A stretch of 24,409 nt of DNA from Gammaproteobacteria bacterium (GCA_023383735.1 JAHDYN010000001.1:1-24409); one strand, 5' to 3'. Shown: positions 8,565-23,643, numbered from the stretch's first letter. The notes: generated from the sequence alone by a model not told the origin. Numbers and translations: made by a program.

Positions 8565-9869
8565 ATGCTTCTTTTCCCTACACGCGCAACCGGCGCGTTC
8601 CTGCTCATTACCGGCCTGGCGCTGCAGGGCGCGGCGCAAGCGCAGACAGCCGCTGCGGAACCCGCCAGCCTGACCCTGGGTCAGGCGGTGGAGCGTGCAC
8701 TGGCCGGCAATCCGGCCTTGCAGGGCTTTGCCTATACCCTGCAGGCGCAGGATGCCCGCATTGCCGCTGCCGGCCAGCGGCCGGCCACCGAGGCCTCTTT
8801 CGAGCTGGAGAACTTTCTCGGCAGCGGTGACTACGATGGTCTGGATGCGGCCGAAGCCACCTTTGCCCTCTCGCAGGTGGTCGAGCTGGGCGACAAACGC
8901 CGGCTGCGTACCGCGGCTGCCGAGGCGGGGCGGGATCTCCTGTCCATCGAGCGCCAGGCAGCGCAGCTGGATGTGCTTGCCGAGGTGGCGCGGCGCTTCA
9001 TCCATGTCGCAGCCCTGCAGGAGCAGCTGGAGCTGACGATCAGCGCCACGGCGCTGGCAGGCAGTATCGTCGCCGACGTCGAGCGTCGCGTGCAGGCGGC
9101 GCGCTCGCCGGAAGCTGAACTCCTGCGTGCACAGGCCGCGCTGGCCACGGCGGAGATCGATGAGCGGCACGCAAGGCGGCAGCTGGCTGTGGGTCGGCGA
9201 CAGCTGGCCGCGACCTGGGGCGCAGAGGAGGATGCCTTCGGGCCGATCAAGGCCGATCTCTACCGCTTCCCGGCCGACACCGATTTCCCGGCACTCGTTG
9301 AGCGGCTGGACGCCAATCCTGATTTTCTGCGCTTTGCCTCCGAGGCGCGGCTGCGCGATGCGGAGCTGCGCCTTGCGAGCAGCCTGAGCCGGCCGGACCT
9401 GTCGTTCTCGGCGGGCGTGCGGCGCATTGAAGGGCCGGACGACCAGGCGCTGGTCTTCGGTGTTTCCGTGCCGCTCTTCTCCGGTCAGCGCGCGGCACCG
9501 GCCCGTGCCGAGGCAAGCGCGCTGCGCGAGCTGGTGAGCGCTGACCGGCAGACCGCCACGATCAGGGCGCGCAATCAGCTCTTTCAACTGCACCAGGAGT
9601 TGCAGCAGGCTGTCGCGGAAACCCGCACGCTCCAGACCGAGGTCATGCCGCGTCTCGATCAGGCGCTGAAACAGACCCGCTATGCCTACGAGCGTGGACG
9701 CTACAGCTACCTGGAACTCGTGGATGCGCAGCAGGCCTGGCGCGCGGCGCACTACACGCTGATCGACGCGGCCGAGCGTGGCCAGACCCTGCAGGTGGAA
9801 ATAGAACGGCTGACCGGTGAGTCCCTCGAAACGGCGACGGGACTGCCCGGCGGGAGCGAGAGCCGGTGA
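8565..9869 (+). CDS. czcC: TolC-family outer membrane factor of a heavy-metal RND system
   Basis: Signal peptide, LTLGQAVERALAGNP, YERGRYSYLELVDAQ. ATG 8565 follows GGAG and is in frame with the tracked 8394-9869 ORF. Confidence 0.85.
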   Translation: MLLFPTRATGAFLLITGLALQGAAQAQTAAAEPASLTLGQAVERALAGNPALQGFAYTLQAQDARIAAAGQRPATEASFELENFLGSGDYDGLDAAEATFALSQVVELGDKRRLRTAAAEAGRDLLSIERQAAQLDVLAEVARRFIHVAALQEQLELTISATALAGSIVADVERRVQAARSPEAELLRAQAALATAEIDERHARRQLAVGRRQLAATWGAEEDAFGPIKADLYRFPADTDFPALVERLDANPDFLRFASEARLRDAELRLASSLSRPDLSFSAGVRRIEGPDDQALVFGVSVPLFSGQRAAPARAEASALRELVSADRQTATIRARNQLFQLHQELQQAVAETRTLQTEVMPRLDQALKQTRYAYERGRYSYLELVDAQQAWRAAHYTLIDAAERGQTLQVEIERLTGESLETATGLPGGSESR

Positions 9870-9895: not shown

Positions 9896-14292
<4,397 letters not shown>

Positions 14293-16460: not shown

Positions 16461-16793
16461 ATGAGCCAGAGCGCAAGACCGTCCGGATCAGCCAGCAGTG
16501 ACTGGCGCAGCCTGTGCCGGGCGCGCCGGATTGATCCTGACGAGGTCGAGATGGTTGCCAGCCGTTACCTGGCCTACCGCAACTACATGCAGCCCCGCGG
16601 TGGCGGCCTGTCGCTGGCCGGGTGGTTCCGCTTCTACTGCCAGGAGAAGGCCTCCGAGAGCGGTGACCAGACCGGCGGGGTGGTCAGCGAGTGCTCGGCG
16701 ACCGGTGAGGCCATCCAGCAGACCATGCTCGGCGATCCGCGGACTTTTCTGGAAATCCTCCACCTGCAGCTCGAAACGGTGCATTCAACCTGA
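16461..16793 (+). CDS. Hypothetical protein (110 aa)
   Basis: Host-like codons with G/C third positions; fills the gap between the AT-rich region and the tRNA promoter; no family recognised. Confidence 0.6.
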   Translation: MSQSARPSGSASSDWRSLCRARRIDPDEVEMVASRYLAYRNYMQPRGGGLSLAGWFRFYCQEKASESGDQTGGVVSECSATGEAIQQTMLGDPRTFLEILHLQLETVHST

Positions 16794-16826
16794 CGCCACG
16801 GCGCTGAATACCTATAATGCGGCGCC
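16790..16826 (+). promoter_or_regulatory. Sigma70 promoter of tRNA-Ser with GC-rich discriminator
   Basis: -35 CTGACG (16790-16795), 17-bp spacer, -10 TATAAT (16813-16818), then GCGGCGCC, the pattern of stable-RNA promoters. Confidence 0.75.
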
Positions 16827-16837
16827 AGCCTGAAACC

Positions 16838-16927
16838 GGAGGGATGCCGGAGAGGCTAAACGGCCCTGACTCGAAATCAGTGGGGGGCGCAAGCCCCACG
16901 GGGGTTCAAATCCCTCTCCCTCCGCCA
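16838..16927 (+). tRNA. tRNA-Ser (anticodon CGA), 90 nt, CCA encoded
   Basis: Acceptor stem GGAGGGA/TCCCTCC; D-stem CCG/CGG; anticodon loop CTCGAAA; long variable arm GGGGC-GCAA-GCCCC; T-loop TTCAAAT; discriminator G plus CCA. Confidence 0.95.
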
Positions 16928-16928
16928 T
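16913..16928 (+). repeat. attL core (tRNA 3' end)
   Basis: CCTCTCCCTCCGCCAT, repeated exactly at 21452. Confidence 0.9.
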
Positions 16929-16960
16929 ACAAGCCCCCGAGGCAATCCGAGTAAGTCCAT

Positions 16961-16990
16961 AAGCCCGCGTAATTGCGGGTTTTTCTTTGT
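16961..16990 (+). terminator. Rho-independent terminator after the tRNA, supplied by the element
   Basis: AAGCCCGC-GTAATT-GCGGGTTT followed by TTCTTTGT. Confidence 0.75.
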
Positions 16991-17031
16991 CTGTAGCATC
17001 TAATGGGGTCTGAGGAATCCCGGTTGAAGCC

Positions 17032-17125
17032 GGGGGCATCACGGGGCATATTAGGGGGCATGAGCGGTTTTCGATGCCCCCAAGCCAGGGGATGCCCCCA
17101 TTCACGGAAGGAATGCCGATGCCCC
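17032..17125. repeat. GGGGCAT direct repeats and inverted ATGCCCC copies, probable integrase arm-type sites
   Basis: GGGGCAT at 17033, 17043 and 17055; ATGCCCC at 17074, 17092 and 17119. Confidence 0.6.
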
Positions 17126-18342
17126 TTACCGATGCCCGCGTAAAGGCTGCCAGTCCACGCGAGAAACCCTATAGGTTGTGGGATGCCCACGGGCTGTATT
17201 TGGAGGTGAGTCCTGCCGGTGGGCGGTTATGGCGGTTCAAGTATCGGGTCGCCGGTAAAGAGAAACGATTGGCTCTAGGCGCTTACCCAGAGGTTGGGCT
17301 AAAGGAAGCCCGTGAGAAGCGCGACGATGCCCGGCGGCTCAAGCGGGATCATGTAGACCCTGGTGCGGCTCGCCGGGATGCCAAGTCCGCGAAGATTGCC
17401 GAAGAACGGATAGCCGGTGCCACGTTCAAGGTTCTTGCCGAGGAATGGCTGGCAAAAAATACTCCCCGCTGGTCTGCTGGCCATGCCGGGACGGTGCGGG
17501 ATCGGCTCACAACTAACGTTTACCCGTGGATCGGCAGCAAGCCCATTGCCGCCATCGAGTCTCCTGCTGTCCTGTCTGTCATTCGCCGTATCGAGGCGCG
17601 TGGGGCACCCGAGGTAGCCCGCCGGGTGTTGCAGGTTGTTACGCAAATATTCACATACGCGATTGCGACGGGTGCAGCTATCCGAAATCCTGCCGCTGAT
17701 CTGCGTGGAGCAATTCCGCCACCGCCCAAAGGCCATCACGCCAGCATCACAGACCCCCGAGGGGTAAGCAGTTTGCTCAAGGCGCTGGATGGCTATAGCG
17801 GCGCGTTTGTTACCCGTTGCGCCATCAAGTTGGCTCCACTGGTCTTTGTCCGCCCCGGTGAGTTACGGCGGGCAGAGTGGGCAGAGTTCGATACAGACAA
17901 CGCAGAGTGGCGTATTCCTGCCGAGAAGATGAAGGCACGAGCTGTGCATATCATTCCCCTGAGTAGGCAGTCCCTCGCCATCATCGAGGAACTGAGGCCG
18001 CTAACTGGCGATGGCAAGTACCTGTTTCCATCGGTGCGTTCACCGTCCCGGCCAATGTCAGAAAACACCGTTACCGGTGCTTTACGCCGCTTGGGCTATA
18101 CGGGTGAGGAAATGACCGGGCACGGCTTCCGCAGCATGGCGAGTACCCTTCTGAATGAGCAGGGCTGGAACCGGGACGCTATCGAGCGACAACTAGCCCA
18201 CGGTGAACGAGACAAGGTGAGAGGCGCTTATAACTACGCTGAGCATCTGCCCGAACGTCGCCGCATGATGCAGGCATGGGCTAACTATCTGGACGGCCTC
18301 CGCAATCGTGAGAACGTTGTGCCGTTTCTGCGGGAAGCGTGA
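17119..18342 (+). CDS. P4-family tyrosine integrase (N-terminal arm-binding domain)
   Basis: MPLTDARVK...DAHGLYLEV..GGRLWRFKYR..GKEKRLALGAYPEVGL; catalytic R (VRPGELR), K (EKMK), HGFR, LAH, and Y (AYNYA). Reading frame intact. Confidence 0.95.
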   Translation: MPLTDARVKAASPREKPYRLWDAHGLYLEVSPAGGRLWRFKYRVAGKEKRLALGAYPEVGLKEAREKRDDARRLKRDHVDPGAARRDAKSAKIAEERIAGATFKVLAEEWLAKNTPRWSAGHAGTVRDRLTTNVYPWIGSKPIAAIESPAVLSVIRRIEARGAPEVARRVLQVVTQIFTYAIATGAAIRNPAADLRGAIPPPPKGHHASITDPRGVSSLLKALDGYSGAFVTRCAIKLAPLVFVRPGELRRAEWAEFDTDNAEWRIPAEKMKARAVHIIPLSRQSLAIIEELRPLTGDGKYLFPSVRSPSRPMSENTVTGALRRLGYTGEEMTGHGFRSMASTLLNEQGWNRDAIERQLAHGERDKVRGAYNYAEHLPERRRMMQAWANYLDGLRNRENVVPFLREA

Positions 18343-18343
18343 A

Positions 18344-18838
18344 ATGCCCGCACCCAAGCGCAGGAAGCCATCAAAGATCATTCCACCTGATCCGCCCGGC
18401 GGAAGCCCTGAGCAGGCGATTGCAGCTTTTTGTATGGCTGCATGGAAAGGCATACCGCCGCCGCCAAGGGTTACGCAGTGGATAGCGGACTGCTTGGCTG
18501 AGATCGAGAATGACCCCAATCATTTTGCGCGTCGTGCATTCGGCATGACAGCCAAGGGTGCGCCGAAAGATAGCGGTACAAGTGTTGATTACCTTCTCTT
18601 TGTAGGACTAGCTCGACGATACGGCCACACGCTCGATGATGCCGTTGCCCATGCGGCGGACGTTTTCAAGAAATCGTCAGATACCATTAGCAAAGCTGTC
18701 AGAGGCATGAGAACCCATAGGCTAGAAGGTCTCCGCACAGACATGATGGAACAGGCGTTACTTAAGCATGGTCGGTCGTTGCCATTACCCCCGGGGAAAT
18801 TAACCAAAGCCAAGAGGCGAACCCCCGCCAAGAAATAG
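18344..18838 (+). CDS. Hypothetical protein (164 aa) with possible C-terminal HTH and basic termini
   Basis: ATG 1 nt after the integrase stop; segment TLDDAVAHAADVFKKSSDTISKAV looks HTH-like. Confidence 0.6.
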   Translation: MPAPKRRKPSKIIPPDPPGGSPEQAIAAFCMAAWKGIPPPPRVTQWIADCLAEIENDPNHFARRAFGMTAKGAPKDSGTSVDYLLFVGLARRYGHTLDDAVAHAADVFKKSSDTISKAVRGMRTHRLEGLRTDMMEQALLKHGRSLPLPPGKLTKAKRRTPAKK

Positions 18839-18913
18839 CCGTCAATTATTGGCTCTCTCGCGTCCAAGTCCGATCGCATTTAATCGGTTCCGTGGTTCAA
18901 CGGAGTAAATGCG

Positions 18914-19117
18914 ATGACCAGTGCAAATGAGAAAGTAATCCGCCGTCCCGAGGTTGAAGCGCGTACTGGGCTGCCCAGAAGTACCCTCTATGACGCGATA
19001 AAGCGTGGCTCGTTTCCTCGCCCTATCAAACTCTCGGAAAGGTCCGTGGCATGGGTTGCTTCGGAGGTTGATGCGTGGGTTGCGGCCCGTATTCACGAAG
19101 CCCGCAGGGTAGCCTGA
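18914..19117 (+). CDS. alpA: AlpA-family excisionase / transcriptional activator
   Basis: IRRPEVEARTGLPRSTLYDAIKRGSFPRPIKLSERSVAWVASEVDAW, the canonical AlpA pattern; GGAG upstream. Confidence 0.92.
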   Translation: MTSANEKVIRRPEVEARTGLPRSTLYDAIKRGSFPRPIKLSERSVAWVASEVDAWVAARIHEARRVA

Positions 19118-19344
19118 TGGCAATTCCGCTTCCCCACGGTTCCGCCCGTTGCCTCTGCCGGGCTTGTGGCGAGTATTTCTCCACGCCAGGCACCTTCGAC
19201 CGGCACCGCCAGAATGGGGCTTGTTTAGCCCCGGAGCGGGTGGGGCTGGTACGCGACCCTATCGGGGTCTGGAAACGCGCTGAAATCCGTACTCCGGAGG
19301 CTCTGGCGCGAATCCACGCCGTTACCTTGGGGGCGCAGCTATGA
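19117..19344 (+). CDS. Small FDxHR-type zinc-binding protein (75 aa)
   Basis: CRAC-GEYFS-TPGT-FDRHR-QNGAC. ATG overlaps the alpA stop (TGATG) and its own stop overlaps the next ATG (ATGA). Confidence 0.7.
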   Translation: MAIPLPHGSARCLCRACGEYFSTPGTFDRHRQNGACLAPERVGLVRDPIGVWKRAEIRTPEALARIHAVTLGAQL

Positions 19345-19805
19345 GCGAGTTCACGGTTATCGGTGGCATCCCGCCGCTACTGCCAGAAGGGAGTTACCAA
19401 CTCGCCTACCTTGGTAATCGGACGATTGCAGGGTTTGCCGGTTCAAAGTCCAATACACGCGGACACAAGGCCGGAAAGCTGCGGATCGATTTTCGGGTAG
19501 TAGACGTTGGTGAGTATTTCGATGTGGAAGTTCCCACCTTTTTCAACGTCCTGGTGCCTATGCAGGCCAGCTTTGGGCGGAACGGTGCCTTTGCGCTAGT
19601 GCCGAATAGTAGCTTCCTGCGCGCCTACCTAAAGCTGTTCGGTCGGGTGAAGCGACGCGATCGCTTGTCGCTGCGGCGATTCAAGAACGTGGTGATTGAG
19701 GCCAGCGTCAGGACGGTTAAGCAGGATCGCAATCAGAAGCCGCTGGCTGAGTCCTGCCACTACTCCGTGGTGGATGAGTTGATACAGGTGGTGGCCGGAT
19801 CATGA
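19341..19805 (+). CDS. Hypothetical protein (154 aa), possible OB-fold / ssDNA-binding
   Basis: Coupled by ATGA overlap; beta-rich, aromatic and basic; PLLPEGSY...KLRIDFRVVDVGEY is reminiscent of DUF669-like phage SSBs (by eye only). Confidence 0.6.
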   Translation: MSEFTVIGGIPPLLPEGSYQLAYLGNRTIAGFAGSKSNTRGHKAGKLRIDFRVVDVGEYFDVEVPTFFNVLVPMQASFGRNGAFALVPNSSFLRAYLKLFGRVKRRDRLSLRRFKNVVIEASVRTVKQDRNQKPLAESCHYSVVDELIQVVAGS

Positions 19806-20032
19806 GTCTGTTGCCTTTCCTTTCCCGTCCTTTCCCATCCCAGCCTATCCCATCCTACTTCCTTCGAACCTGTACCCCGGCTGCAGCCCTTGAGGCTATT
19901 AGCTCTCATACGTTCAGGGCGTTGGATTGTTTGGCAGAAAACGGGCGGAGGTTTTTCAAGAATTGTTGGCTGTGCAGGCCGACGCAACGAATTCAGCCTT
20001 TGGGTAAAAGCGGGCTGAATGACATCCAGTAG
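19802..20032 (+). CDS. Doubtful 76-aa ORF overlapping the pentamer repeat and a hairpin
   Basis: ATGA overlap with the preceding stop, but the translation is low-complexity and unrecognisable. Confidence 0.2.
   Translation: MSLLPFLSRPFPSQPIPSYFLRTCTPAAALEAISSHTFRALDCLAENGRRFFKNCWLCRPTQRIQPLGKSGLNDIQ
19813..19857 (+). repeat. Nine tandem degenerate pentamers (consensus TCCYW)
   Basis: GCCTT TCCTT TCCCG TCCTT TCCCA TCCCA GCCTA TCCCA TCCTA. Confidence 0.8.
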
Positions 20033-20227
20033 CCAACTGCTTTCCCCGGGTAGCGGTGTACGCCGCCAAGTGTCCACCGCCCCGGGGTCCAAGAAGGTAA
20101 GCGGAACTGATTGTAATGGACGGACGGCATGACGCGAATCTTCTAATAGATCGTGACTTCCGGAATTTTCTGACCAGTACGCGTAAGGGGGTAATCCCCC
20201 CTTTATTAGCTCTTGGCAGAAGTGGAG

Positions 20228-21061
20228 CTAAGCGGCCATCGCCAGTTTCTGTATCGGGGTGATGCCGCCGATGGCCATATTCGGACGCTCGTGGTTGTAA
20301 GTCCAGAGCCAGCGAGTAGCTGATTCCCGGACGTCATTGATGGACTCGAACAAGGTCTGGCTCAGCCAGTCGTAACGCACGGTGCGGTTATAGCGTTCAA
20401 CGTAGGCATTCTGCTGCGGCTTCCCGGGCTGGATATGTTCAAGGTGGATACCGCGGCTCCGCGCCCAGTCCCGCAAGGCTTCGCTGATGTACTCGGGACC
20501 GTTGTCGCAGCGGATCACCGTCGGCGACCCGCGCCACTCGATGATCTGCTCCAGGGACCGGATCACGCGAGCTGACGGCAATGACAGATCCACTTCGATG
20601 CCCAGTCCTTCGCGATTGAAGTCGTCCAGCACGTTGAACAGGCGGAACGTTCGCCCATCACTCAACTGGTCATGCATGAAGTCCATGGACCAGACCTGGT
20701 TGATCGATGCCGGCACGGTCAGTGGTTGCGGCTTCTCGCGCACCAGGCGTTTCCGCGGCTTGATGCGCAGGTTCAGCTCCAGTTCCCGGTAAATCCGGTA
20801 CACGCGCTTGTGGTTCCAGCCAAAGCGCTTCACGTTGCGCAGGTACAGGTAGCACATGCCGAAGCCCCAGTTCTTCTGGTTGAAGGTCAGCCGCAGCAGC
20901 CAGTCGGCAATGACGGCGTTCTCGTCCGATAACCGCCGTTGGTAGCGGTAGCAGGTCTCGCTGACCGAGAAGTCAGCGCAGGCCTGGCGAACGCGGGCCC
21001 CGCGGACCTCGACCGCCCATCTGGCCATCTCACGCCGCTGAGATGGCCTCACCATTTTTTT
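20228..21061 (-). CDS. IS3-family transposase OrfB (DDE/rve), expressed as an OrfAB fusion by -1 frameshift
   Basis: [23 protein letters not shown]. Slippery A7 at 21055-21061 with a downstream 10-bp hairpin. Confidence 0.92.
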
Positions 21062-21315
21062 GTGAGGGCCTCCTTCATGATCTCGGCCCGCATCTGTACC
21101 TCGGCGTACATCTTCTTCAAGCGCCGGTTCTCTTCTTCCAGTTCCTTGATCCGGGACATCATCGGCACATCCAGGCCGCCGTACTTCGCCCGCCACTTGT
21201 AGAACGTGGCGCTGCTGATGCCATGCGTCCGGCACAGCTCCGGAACCGGGCTACCGGCCTCCGCCTGCTTCAAAATGCCAATGATCTGGCTGTCGGTAAA
21301 TCGCGATTTCTTCAC
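21049..21315 (-). CDS. IS3-family transposase OrfA (HTH)
   Basis: [21 protein letters not shown]...[17 protein letters not shown]; GTG start after GAGGAG. Confidence 0.92.
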
Positions 21316-21451
21316 GGGAATCTCCTCGACTCAGATTACGAGAAAATTCCACTTCTGGCTTCAGCTAAATTCAGGGGGGATTACCGGCATTCTCGGGGGC
21401 AAATTCTTACAAGCCTGCCTGTAACCATTGCTAATACTGATTATTCGCGTT

Positions 21452-21467
21452 CCTCTCCCTCCGCCAT
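21452..21467 (+). repeat. attR core
   Basis: CCTCTCCCTCCGCCAT, identical to the tRNA-Ser 3' end. Confidence 0.9.
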
Positions 21468-21685: not shown

Positions 21686-22342
21686 GTGTATCTGCTGCTC
21701 GTGGAAGACGATCTCGGCCTCGGCCAGGCATTGCACAAGCTCCTGTTGCGCCACTACCGTGTCCATTGGGTCCGGTCGCTGGCTTCGGCCCGGCGTCATT
21801 TCGATGCGGCGGAGTATGACGCCATGCTCCTTGACCTCGGTTTGCCTGATGGTGATGGCGTCGATTGGCTGCGTACGCTGCGGGCCGAAGGATGCCTGAT
21901 GCCGGTGCTGATAATTTCTGCCCGCGACCAGCTGGATGATCGGGTGAAGGGTCTGGACACGGGTGCCGACGACTACCTCGTCAAGCCCTTTGAACCTGAT
22001 GAGCTGCTGGCGCGGATCCGGGTCCTGCTCCGGCGGCAATCCGGGGTTGCGCAGCCGCGAATCACCTCCGGCGCACTGAGCTTTGCGACGGAGTCCCGTC
22101 AGTTCTACCTGAGTGATGAAGCGGTGAACTTTTCTCCGAAGGAACACCAGATCCTTGCGGTGCTCATTCAGGCTGGCGGCAAGCCAGTGAGCCGGGAGCG
22201 GCTCACCCAGCAGCTCTACGGTCTCGGTGATGCTGCGGACTCCAACACGCTGGAGGTCCACATTCACGCCCTTCGGAAAGTGCTGGGCAAGGACCGGATA
22301 GAGACCTTGCGTGGCTTTGGTTACCGGCTGGTCGCCCGATGA
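21686..22342 (+). CDS. OmpR-family response regulator, QseB/PmrA-like
   Basis: LLVEDD, LLDLGLPDGDG, GADDYLVKPF, winged helix SNTLEVHIHALRKVLG...TLRGFGY. Confidence 0.92.
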   Translation: MYLLLVEDDLGLGQALHKLLLRHYRVHWVRSLASARRHFDAAEYDAMLLDLGLPDGDGVDWLRTLRAEGCLMPVLIISARDQLDDRVKGLDTGADDYLVKPFEPDELLARIRVLLRRQSGVAQPRITSGALSFATESRQFYLSDEAVNFSPKEHQILAVLIQAGGKPVSRERLTQQLYGLGDAADSNTLEVHIHALRKVLGKDRIETLRGFGYRLVAR

Positions 22343-23643
22343 GGTTCCGCCTCTCTCGCCTGGCCCTGCTCATCGCGACGACTATCGTCGCCGTCGGCGC
22401 CATGGGGGTATTCGCCACTTATCGGGAGGCCGGGGACGAGCTGCGCGACATCCTGGACGACGATCTGGAGAAGCAGTGCCGGATGCTGGCGAGGTTCCTT
22501 GCTGCCGATCCGGCCGGGCTGGAAAAAAAGGAGCTGCAGACCCTGCTCACCAGGTCGTTCCGGCCGGACGATGAGGAAACCCTGTGGGTAAACGTCTACA
22601 ACCTCGAAACCGGGCAGCTGGCGAGCAACCAGGAACACGCCCTGCAGCTTGCAGGTCCTGATAGCGGCGCACTGACCTTGCGGTGGAATGGTTACACCTG
22701 GGAGGGATACCAACGGCGTGAAGGTGGGCTGGTCGTTCAGCTCCTCCGTCGGACGGACCTCTACGAGGAGGTGCAGGGCGAGATCCTGGAGGAAATCACC
22801 ATGCCCGTCATCGCCGGCACCGGCGTCACGCTGCTGCTGCTGGCCACTTTGATCGGTTTCATGCTGGGGCCTCTCTCGCGCCTGGTCCGGCAGCTCGAGA
22901 CGCGCAATGCCGACTCGCTGGCGCCCCTGAACATCTGGACGCCGACCATCGAGGTAAACATCCTCGTCGCCACGATCAACCGCCTGATGAGCGGCGTGGA
23001 TTCGGTATTGCAGCGTGAGAGGCAGTTCGCCAACGACGTGGCTCATGAGTTGCGCACACCCCTGACGACACTGAAGGTCGAACTGGCCGGACCGGAGCCG
23101 GATCTGCCCGCCATCAAGGCGGAGGTCGACCGGCTGGCCCGACTGGTTGAACAGTTGCTCACGCTCGCGCGGCTGGAGCAGGGACGGTGGCACGCCAGTT
23201 TCAGCGAGGTGCCACTGCATGACGTCTGGGCCCGGGAGTCCGGACGCTTCGCGGGCGCAGCGGAACAGGCCGGAATGACCCTGTCGAGCGACGTGCGCCC
23301 GACCGTCGTCAACGGTGACCCGACATTGCTCCAGGTGCTGCTCCGGAACCTGATCGGCAACGTACTGCGCCACTGTCCGACTGGCACGCGCATACACGTT
23401 GCCATCGGTACCGAGTCCGGTCCGGACACACTCGTCGTGCGCGACTCGGGTCCTGGTATTCCAGCGGACCAGCGCGCGCAGATGAATGCCGGTTTTGCGC
23501 GGCTGGACAGTCGAAGCGAGGGCCTCGGTCTGGGGCTGGCGATCTGCCGGAGGATTGCCGAGGTGCACGGCGCCGAACTGCAGTTTCTGGCGAACAGCGA
23601 CGGGAGTTCCGGGCTCCGGGTGGAAGTTCGCTTTCCACCTTAA
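22339..23643 (+). CDS. Sensor histidine kinase, QseC/PmrB-like
   Basis: Two membrane segments; H-box FANDVAHELRTPL; N-box LRNLIGN; DSGPG; GLGLGLAI. ATGA overlap with the response regulator. Confidence 0.92.
   Translation: MRFRLSRLALLIATTIVAVGAMGVFATYREAGDELRDILDDDLEKQCRMLARFLAADPAGLEKKELQTLLTRSFRPDDEETLWVNVYNLETGQLASNQEHALQLAGPDSGALTLRWNGYTWEGYQRREGGLVVQLLRRTDLYEEVQGEILEEITMPVIAGTGVTLLLLATLIGFMLGPLSRLVRQLETRNADSLAPLNIWTPTIEVNILVATINRLMSGVDSVLQRERQFANDVAHELRTPLTTLKVELAGPEPDLPAIKAEVDRLARLVEQLLTLARLEQGRWHASFSEVPLHDVWARESGRFAGAAEQAGMTLSSDVRPTVVNGDPTLLQVLLRNLIGNVLRHCPTGTRIHVAIGTESGPDTLVVRDSGPGIPADQRAQMNAGFARLDSRSEGLGLGLAICRRIAEVHGAELQFLANSDGSSGLRVEVRFPP

Follow-up and report, generated by a model that had tools for sequence, protein, structure and literature searches.

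The phage-inducible chromosomal minimalist islands of Vibrionaceae (PICMIs), which have the layout int-iolg-alpA-up1-prim-up2 (PMC10803314), are the closest published kind to the element described here, an integrative element at tRNA-Ser(CGA) in a 24,409-nucleotide stretch of DNA from a gammaproteobacterium (GCA_023383735.1, JAHDYN010000001.1:1-24409). This stretch, hereafter called the window, is contig C239 of a metagenome-assembled genome that is 71% complete. The element is not itself a PICMI. Like PICMIs, it is very small and co-oriented, and comprises an integrase, a gene that overlaps or abuts the integrase gene (iolg/icg), alpA, a small uncharacterized gene, and a main early gene; it shares with them the lack of capsid-remodeling or packaging genes, and, in some members of its family, anti-phage cargo. 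Its int and alpA are also co-located as in PICMIs, with domains PF00589 and PF05930 lying 572 bp apart on the same strand.

The element differs from PICMIs in the very feature that defines them, a DUF3987/DUF5906 primase that is needed for their replication and is mandatory in the published model (PMC10803314). In the corresponding slot, the window element encodes a 154-aa protein (orf154) with a predicted oligonucleotide/oligosaccharide-binding (OB) fold, followed by a conserved module of repeat tract and hairpin; neither DUF3987 nor DUF5906 was found in the open reading frames (ORFs) of the element or in those genes of related contexts that were scanned or precomputed against Pfam. Furthermore, PICMIs integrate next to fis, whereas the window element occupies tRNA-Ser(CGA) and its relatives a tRNA, tmRNA, or mnmE. 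Its 3.3-kb backbone is about half the length of PICMI115 (6.1 kb), and whereas PICMIs are induced by a helper phage and packaged as concatemers, the present family is known here from sequence alone. We lean toward the view that the element represents, free of cargo, the backbone of a widespread family of small islands that lack a primase, depend on a helper, and are most likely satellite-like, in which the OB protein and the tract and hairpin would form a replication or packaging module, and that the copy in the window has been inactivated by an insertion sequence (IS).

Two other groups of satellites invite comparison. Gram-negative phage-inducible chromosomal islands (PICIs; EcCICFT073 type) and Staphylococcus aureus pathogenicity islands (SaPIs) likewise pair an integrase with an AlpA-type activator at a chromosomal att site, and a terminase small subunit (TerS) is found in some relatives of the window element. 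PICIs and SaPIs differ in having a primase/replicase with an adjacent origin, packaging-redirection genes (terS, ppi, cpm, or rpp), and a length of 8 to 15 kb; no such primase/replicase or packaging gene was found in the window element, and TerS occurs in two relatives only. P4 and P4-like satellites share with it a P4-type integrase with an arm-binding domain, a tRNA target, and an AlpA-family gene, and relatives of the window element carry defense cargo in a variable slot. In contrast to P4, the element lacks the alpha primase-helicase, sid, psu, delta, and cos, and no ORF of the element gave a Pfam or PHROG match to alpha primase-helicase or to sid/psu/delta. The initial annotation, made from the sequence alone, had described an element of about 3,343 bp once its IS is removed, with no recognizable primase, helicase, relaxase, terminase, or capsid gene. 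Both points are borne out: Pfam and PHROG scans of the element ORFs recognized none of these genes, and the two IS flanks are parts of a single arm-type site pair. The tRNA, att pair, int, orf164, alpA, zinc finger gene, orf154, and IS all lie where that annotation had placed them (Table 1).

Gene order is conserved throughout the family. About a dozen related contexts were examined (L006/L074, L010, L011, L019, L020, L021, L023, L024, L070, L071, and the P0020 contig), and wherever a contig reaches far enough upstream, a tyrosine integrase gene is followed by a gene without a Pfam match (130 to 290 aa, abutting or overlapping int), a small AlpA/helix-turn-helix (HTH) gene, zero to two further small genes, and the OB gene. 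In most contexts, the first of these small genes encodes an AlpA, HTH_17, or HTH_39 protein. The complete backbone reads attL with arm-type sites, int, orf164, alpA, a small accessory protein, the OB protein, the cis-acting module, cargo (in relatives), the P' arm, and attR. Among the genes of related contexts that were scanned against Pfam or had precomputed Pfam assignments, none showed a primase domain, and no primase takes up the slot in which the IS lies in the window.

Relatives are larger through variable cargo after the conserved block, not through replication genes. This downstream content includes PEP-CTERM proteins (L006/L074 and L010), an OLD-like ATPase (L011), a PLD nuclease and a large helicase (L020), Type I restriction-modification and GmrSD systems (L070), HsdM (L024), and DUF3102 and other proteins (L023). 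Both ends could be defined in three elements, of 3.34 kb at tRNA-Ser(CGA), 5.43 kb at tRNA-Ser(TGA) (repeats of 18 nucleotides, 17 of them identical), and 9.27 kb at tRNA-Sec (repeats of 23 bp). For L006/L074, no attR was found within the 7.6 kb of L074, and the overlap of L074 with L006 places the element above 8.7 kb. The integration sites of relatives comprise tRNA-Ser(TGA), tmRNA, tRNA-Sec, tRNA-Arg, and mnmE. The initial annotation had reasoned that consistently larger relatives with a primase or packaging genes at the position of the IS would make the window copy a deletion derivative. Relatives are indeed consistently larger (5.4, 9.3, and >8.7 kb), but their additional DNA is variable cargo, with no primase and no fixed packaging module. 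The PEP-CTERM-type secreted proteins (C-terminal VPxPAAVWLFGSALGLMG..RRK) are encoded at L006 4263-6091, L074 3100-5716, and L010 12086-12922. Those of L010 lie between the att repeats and are cargo; as no attR was found for L006/L074, their status as cargo there is unconfirmed. Small integrative islands do not usually carry such proteins.

The pairing of the OB gene with a repeat tract, in several lineages followed by a GC-rich hairpin, is the most distinctive feature of the family. In the window, the tract is placed 13 nucleotides past the orf154 stop. Across the family, the gap after the OB gene is usually 120 to 420 nucleotides long and carries periodic repeats of 5 to 6 nucleotides, CCT-type on one strand and AGG-type on the other. 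By a crude score, the tract is the top scorer of the entire locus (5 to 24 kb), 13 to 75 nucleotides past the OB stop, in 7 of the 11 loci with an intact OB gene; by eye, it was seen in all 10 distinct relatives inspected. Conservation of the surrounding non-coding block was gauged chiefly against L006, a metagenome contig that starts at the same tRNA and is collinear with window positions 16802-20120 at 75% identity. Within the window clade, the block is more conserved than any gene, and about 150 nucleotides of it are invariant in five sequences from different samples. Homology stops sharply past the block, at about 20120-20125, where three different continuations follow. The hairpin is kept, with one compensatory change from G-C to A-T, in the element of G028, a congeneric genome (locus L010), and the OB protein there shares only 30% identity with that of the window. 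Exact-pattern scans for the invariant hairpin in metagenome and genome contigs returned no match. The repeat tract is the best candidate for the site where the OB protein acts.

The block behaves as non-coding DNA, in agreement with the structured 3' region of the initial annotation. A 76-aa ORF called in four relatives (window 19802-20032) was rejected as a gene, as it shows 7, 7, and 5 substitutions at the first, second, and third codon positions and no third-position bias, though it could be translated. Rfam gave no match in the block, and the block was likewise rejected as a single long structured RNA, with whole-block folding not significantly stable (z = -0.57) and local hairpins supported. 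A second iteron-like array was seen in L011, a tmRNA-integrated relative, where five tandem copies of the 8-mer ATCTCACC (10758-10813) are flanked by the 292-aa integrase-side gene and the small gene that comes before the OB gene, and precede the early operon.

The AlphaFold2 (AF2) model of orf154 is an OB-type barrel of medium confidence (predicted local distance difference test [pLDDT], 77), and its best solved neighbor is PrgE of pCF10 (VIA Z 7.8; Foldseek E = 0.038). Forty-five viral models match it at E ≤ 1e-3, many annotated as DUF669 or single-stranded DNA (ssDNA)-binding protein (SSB), with Foldseek E values of 1e-5 to 1e-3 and template modeling (TM) scores of 0.5 to 0.6. Among AlphaFold DB clusters, orf154 matches DUF669 (E = 3e-4), and a language-model look-up led to viral clusters, including one that is partly DUF669, a family of phage SSBs (PMC4889955, PMC13687109). 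With DUF669/N4-type phage SSBs and PrgE, orf154 shares the predicted OB fold and similar size and topology; it differs from the DUF669/N4-type proteins in having neither a PF05037 match nor an acidic C-terminal tail, and whereas their partner is a Sak4-type ATPase, that of orf154 is a fixed non-coding repeat tract. None of 57 OB-family members matched PF05037 (DUF669) even at E ≤ 1, and the family has no Pfam or PHROG model. Judging from the model, orf154 is probably an OB-fold, ssDNA-binding protein, which we do not assign to DUF669. Searching 1.84 billion representatives with a profile recovered 1,188 OB-family clusters at E ≤ 1e-3 (718 of them at ≤ 1e-10), counted at 50% identity, and a member is present in 4 of 395 high-quality genomes sampled from the class. 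The window copy of orf154 lacks the first 12 residues of its four closest homologs (166 aa), a 36-nucleotide in-frame difference at the 5' end.

We propose that a helper, most likely a phage, would switch on the alpA operon, and that Int and AlpA, perhaps with the orf164 product, would then excise a circle. The OB protein could act on the tract and hairpin as a primase-independent origin or as a packaging or transfer signal; copying would depend on host or helper enzymes, and transfer on the helper. The link to phages is circumstantial and draws on the phage-SSB-like structure of orf154, on TerS in two relatives, and on one phage-like contig that shares the early module. In L021, TerS is encoded directly after the OB gene (PF03592, E = 1e-13; phrog_51). 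In L020 (genome G183), the integrase-abutting gene at 8860-9387, in the position of orf164, is a TerS homolog (phrog_4044, E = 2e-29) with no detectable relation to orf164. The P0020 contig carries Phage_tail_S and large terminase (Terminase_3) genes alongside the same early module. The phage-satellite family put forward in the initial annotation is upheld in so far as the family is conserved and its layout parallels that of PICMIs; satellite status itself we infer. No excised circle, empty site, or virion-associated copy was seen.

A bolder proposal, which we regard as possible but doubtful, is that the OB protein, tract, and hairpin constitute a new primase-independent module that defines a large, unnamed family of mini phage satellites ferrying defense systems (more than 1,000 protein clusters and roughly 1% of genomes in the class), with the 3.3-kb backbone as the smallest known. 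For many genomic islands, no means of transfer is known, and small helper-dependent elements are suspected behind a large share of them. Here, a compact, recurrent backbone carries defense systems and surface-protein genes with neither primase nor relaxase. If the OB protein and the tract and hairpin do enable copying or packaging, this would be a new solution to satellite replication and would bring the minimum size of a mobile island down to about 3.3 kb.

Several observations weigh against a helper-dependent satellite. The OB assignment is a medium-confidence model whose middling TM and Z scores lie at a level that the tool warns is common, and orf154 has no acidic tail typical of SSBs. PrgE, its top match in the PDB, comes from a conjugative plasmid and suits transfer by conjugation equally well. 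The window element has neither TerS nor a recognizable packaging signal. tblastn of orf154 against phage and plasmid collections (72,556 plasmids) gave no match, and four pattern scans of IMG/VR found no OB relatives, searches that in both cases reach close relatives only; single-protein scans of genome contigs found no OB relatives either. The high conservation of the non-coding block could stem partly from recent recombination rather than selection. A weaker point is that no attP circle or attB junction was present in the contigs of four metagenome runs, as contigs drop rare forms.

An alternative hypothesis is that the element is an integrative mobilizable element moved by conjugation, in which the hairpin and adjoining motif mimic an origin of transfer (oriT) for a helper relaxase and the OB protein, as a plasmid-type SSB (PrgE, plasmid Ssb), coats the transferred strand. 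oriT sites typically consist of a GC-rich hairpin with a short conserved motif after it. The element has just such an arrangement, its orf154 finds its top solved-structure match in PrgE of the conjugative plasmid pCF10, it has no packaging gene, and OB relatives were not found in viral collections. In contrast, no relaxase, coupling protein, or MobI-like gene was recognized in any context examined, and tblastn detected no OB relative among 72,556 plasmids. By number, the nearest structural neighbors of orf154 are phage DUF669/SSB models, and TerS homologs in two relatives and terminase and tail genes in a further context also speak for phages. Movement by conjugation is, in our estimation, unlikely but a serious alternative.

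Arm-type sites and the IS together establish the true size of the window element. Six of the eight GGGGCAW matches in the 24.4-kb window fall within 93 nucleotides between attL and the start of int (17033-17125), and the G028 element is arranged alike. At the other end, the P' arm is interrupted by an IS with orfA and orfB on one strand, terminal inverted repeats, and a 3-bp duplication, as in the IS3 family; other copies in the genus confirm its ends GGTAATCCCCCC...GGGGGGATTACC, and it is multi-copy in metagenomes (depth, 145 versus 20). The duplication is imperfect in the window copy (GGG versus GGC) and clean (CAG) in the L029 copy, leaving the target-duplication test of clean insertion ambiguous; reconstruction of the arm-type sites is more informative. 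When the IS flanks are joined, they read GGGGGCATTCTCGGGGGCAAAT, which matches the tandem pair GGGGGCATTTCTGGGGGCATAT of the G028 element, located 53 to 65 nucleotides before attR, at the same distance. Since the joined flanks restore a pair of the G028 type, the IS is a simple insertion into tandem P' arm-type sites. The element without it measures 3,343 bp, with only 135 bp between the conserved block and the attR core, and is a backbone without cargo. Many genomes of the genus contain dispersed fragments and ends of the IS, and L029 (G007:C8) carries, at about 1502-1938, an internally deleted derivative of about 437 bp that resembles a miniature inverted-repeat transposable element (MITE), with both terminal repeats and the clean CAG duplication.

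Many metagenomes from wastewater, bioreactors, sludge, landfill, and soil contain near-identical DNA, and the contigs of four runs were mapped onto the locus. The landfill run X2 has the full form of the window, and two of three independent metagenomes (X3, bioreactor; X8, soil; different studies) have a form that has lost 1,664 bp, which removes the 3' part of orf164, alpA, the zinc finger gene, orf154, and the non-coding block and leaves the right IS junction unchanged. The join of 18525 to 20190 is the signature of an IS-adjacent deletion. In X8, depth is 0 over 18537-20039, with flanks at 5x (host depth). In X3, depth over the same segment is 0 except for a faint 1.7 to 2.6 at about 19370-19705, with flanks at 20x (host depth); the faint signal is consistent with a minority of the full form. 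Ten other runs share about 60% of sampled words, as expected of the shorter form, a comparison of word sharing only. RNA contigs of the source sample are sparse, with int and the 3' end of orf154 covered at a low depth no different from that of the host flanks, so that transcription is indistinguishable from DNA carry-over. We take this copy to be decaying because two independent metagenomes hold the IS-adjacent deletion, and the window copy is probably immobile and eroding. The "complete" element of the initial annotation is bounded and about 3.3 kb without its IS, but the word overstates its condition, as the IS splits the attR-side arm pair and a deletion variant is present in two of three metagenomes. 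The copy is nonetheless useful, both as a backbone without cargo and as a natural inactivation series that runs from intact form through IS insertion to IS-adjacent deletion.

The same evidence could be taken to indicate a decayed, non-mobile remnant of a larger island, left when the distal genes were lost and no longer functional as a unit. The split arm pair with its imperfect target duplication, the IS-adjacent deletion with ten further runs at about 60% of words, and the presence of extra genes past the non-coding block in all close relatives would fit such an origin. However, the IS flanks rejoin into arm-type sites of the G028 type, 135 bp from block to attR, which argues for a clean insertion into an element already free of cargo and against a large deletion. 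All five element genes (int, orf164, alpA, the zinc finger gene, and orf154) are intact and co-oriented on the plus strand, and relatives diverge exactly at the end of the block into three continuations, as would be expected of a cargo slot and not of a lost backbone. We consider a remnant of this kind unlikely; it addresses what this copy is now and is compatible with the satellite-like explanation at the level of the family.

Comparison with L006 also bears on the individual genes. Substitutions at first, second, and third codon positions number 85/57/227 in int, 36/28/72 in orf164, 11/5/27 in alpA, and 17/10/43 in orf154, all of which are coding; the zinc finger gene (21/20/33) is likewise coding but less markedly so. 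The integrase is 74% identical to that of L006 and 79% identical to that of L010. The intergenic stretch between orf164 and alpA is 85% identical to L006, compared to 70 to 79% in the adjacent genes, and it contains a 17-bp inverted repeat that, from its sequence and position, is a candidate operator. The FDxHR zinc finger protein is conserved in L006, L074, and L026; PF24071 found no match among the small genes in the equivalent slot of the more distant family members scanned.

Orf164 has few homologs and no Pfam or PHROG match. In its AF2 model (pLDDT 70), residues 73 to 145 resemble HTH/winged-helix domains at Z ≤ 6.4, which is weak and at a level flagged as common; on this model, orf164 is probably an HTH DNA-binding protein. 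It was also considered as a hidden TerS, by analogy with the gene at the equivalent position in L020, and rejected (hhalign probability, 2%; fold search, only generic HTH likeness). The winged-helix resemblance, which includes Cdc6/ORC initiators, together with the iteron-like repeats that adjoin the conserved OB gene across the family, raises a further alternative, that of a self-sufficient miniature integrative plasmid in which the OB protein, with the zinc finger protein and/or orf164, acts as a new initiator on the tract and needs no helper for replication. We judge this very unlikely, given that no known initiator fold or motif was found, the orf164 match is at the level flagged as common, tblastn gave no OB-family match in the plasmid collection, and no run mapped contained a free circular contig.

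Table 1. Features of the tRNA-Ser(CGA) element (window coordinates)
Feature	Position	Strand	Evidence or remark
tRNA-Ser(CGA), integration target	16838-16927	+	ARAGORN, sole tRNA called; Rfam tRNA, 45.9 bits
attL core (tRNA 3' end)	16913-16928	+	Exact 16-mer CCTCTCCCTCCGCCAT, second copy at 21452-21467
Terminator-like hairpin on left end of element, after tRNA	16961-16982	+	Terminator scan
Six GGGGCAT arm-type sites, three per strand, between attL and int start	17033-17125		Motif count
P4-type tyrosine integrase (int), 408 aa	17116-18342	+	Arm-DNA-bind_3 PF13356, Phage_int_M PF22022, Phage_integrase PF00589; phrog_1, E 3.5e-66
orf164, integrase-contiguous, positioned like PICMI iolg/icg	18344-18838	+	Begins 1 nt past int stop, likewise in L006
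Segment lost in deletion variant	18526-20189		X3 and X8 contigs join 18525 to IS left end 20190
17-bp inverted repeat I5, just upstream of alpA	18873-18915		88% complementary
alpA, AlpA-family HTH (excision factor/regulator)	18914-19117	+	PF05930, E 8.9e-20; phrog_2790, excisionase/regulator
FDxHR zinc-binding protein, 75 aa	19117-19344	+	PF24071, E 3.8e-8
orf154, family signature gene, 154 aa	19341-19805	+	AF2 model, profile search
Conserved non-coding block	19806-20120	+	92-95% identical to L006 vs 67-85% for genes
Strand-asymmetric pentamer tract CCYNW, about 9-10 units, iteron-like	19814-19865	+	Top-scoring such tract of the 24.4-kb window
GC-rich hairpin CCCCGGG-TA-GCGGTG ... CACCGC-C-CCGGGG	20044-20087	+	Followed by TCCA and GATTGTAA
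P' arm, left part (attR side)	20121-20189	+	Ends ..AAGGG, first half of split arm-type site
IS3-family IS, 1,196 bp	20190-21385	-	orfA 21049-21315 (HTH_Tnp_1), orfB 20228-21235 (rve/rve_3)
P' arm, right part	21386-21451	+	Begins GGCATTC..; intact arm-type site 21395-21404
attR core	21452-21467	+	Exact copy of attL 16-mer

The locus has the hallmarks of a genomic island inserted by a tRNA-targeting tyrosine integrase, with the integrase gene beside the tRNA and the tRNA 3' end directly repeated at the opposite boundary. The 16-mer CCTCTCCCTCCGCCAT occurs in the window in these two copies only, 4,539 bp apart, and none of 100 shuffles contained any match. The tRNA-Ser(CGA) gene was found in all 30 genus relatives searched, and in none of the 16 with at least 800 nucleotides readable downstream was it followed by an integrase gene. 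The sequence TCATTTTTC after attR resembles the CATTTTC seen 3' of the tRNA in several relatives that have no integrase gene at this site. In the genus, the tRNA locus is conserved and its downstream neighbors are not; an empty attB with conserved synteny was sought and not obtained. Because downstream synteny is not conserved, the CATTTTC likeness is all that backs the right boundary from the side of the genus.

Directly downstream of attR lie genes for an OmpR-type response regulator and a histidine kinase (21686-23643), whose orthologs in genus relatives are not beside tRNA-Ser; synteny at the junction is therefore not conserved. In three relatives (G019, G013, and G002; loci L052, L054, and L056), tRNA-Ser(CGA) is followed by a terminator-like hairpin that resembles window positions 16960-16995, with no integrase gene within 1.5 kb. 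This hairpin could be a native terminator that the element has captured, or the hairpins could be scars of past occupants. Metagenome contigs that match 16960-16994 run on into other sequence, at higher depth. Directly upstream of the tRNA, the window has a 110-aa ORF (16461-16793) with no Pfam match, and DNA matching this ORF and the tRNA stretch is present in all 30 genus relatives searched.

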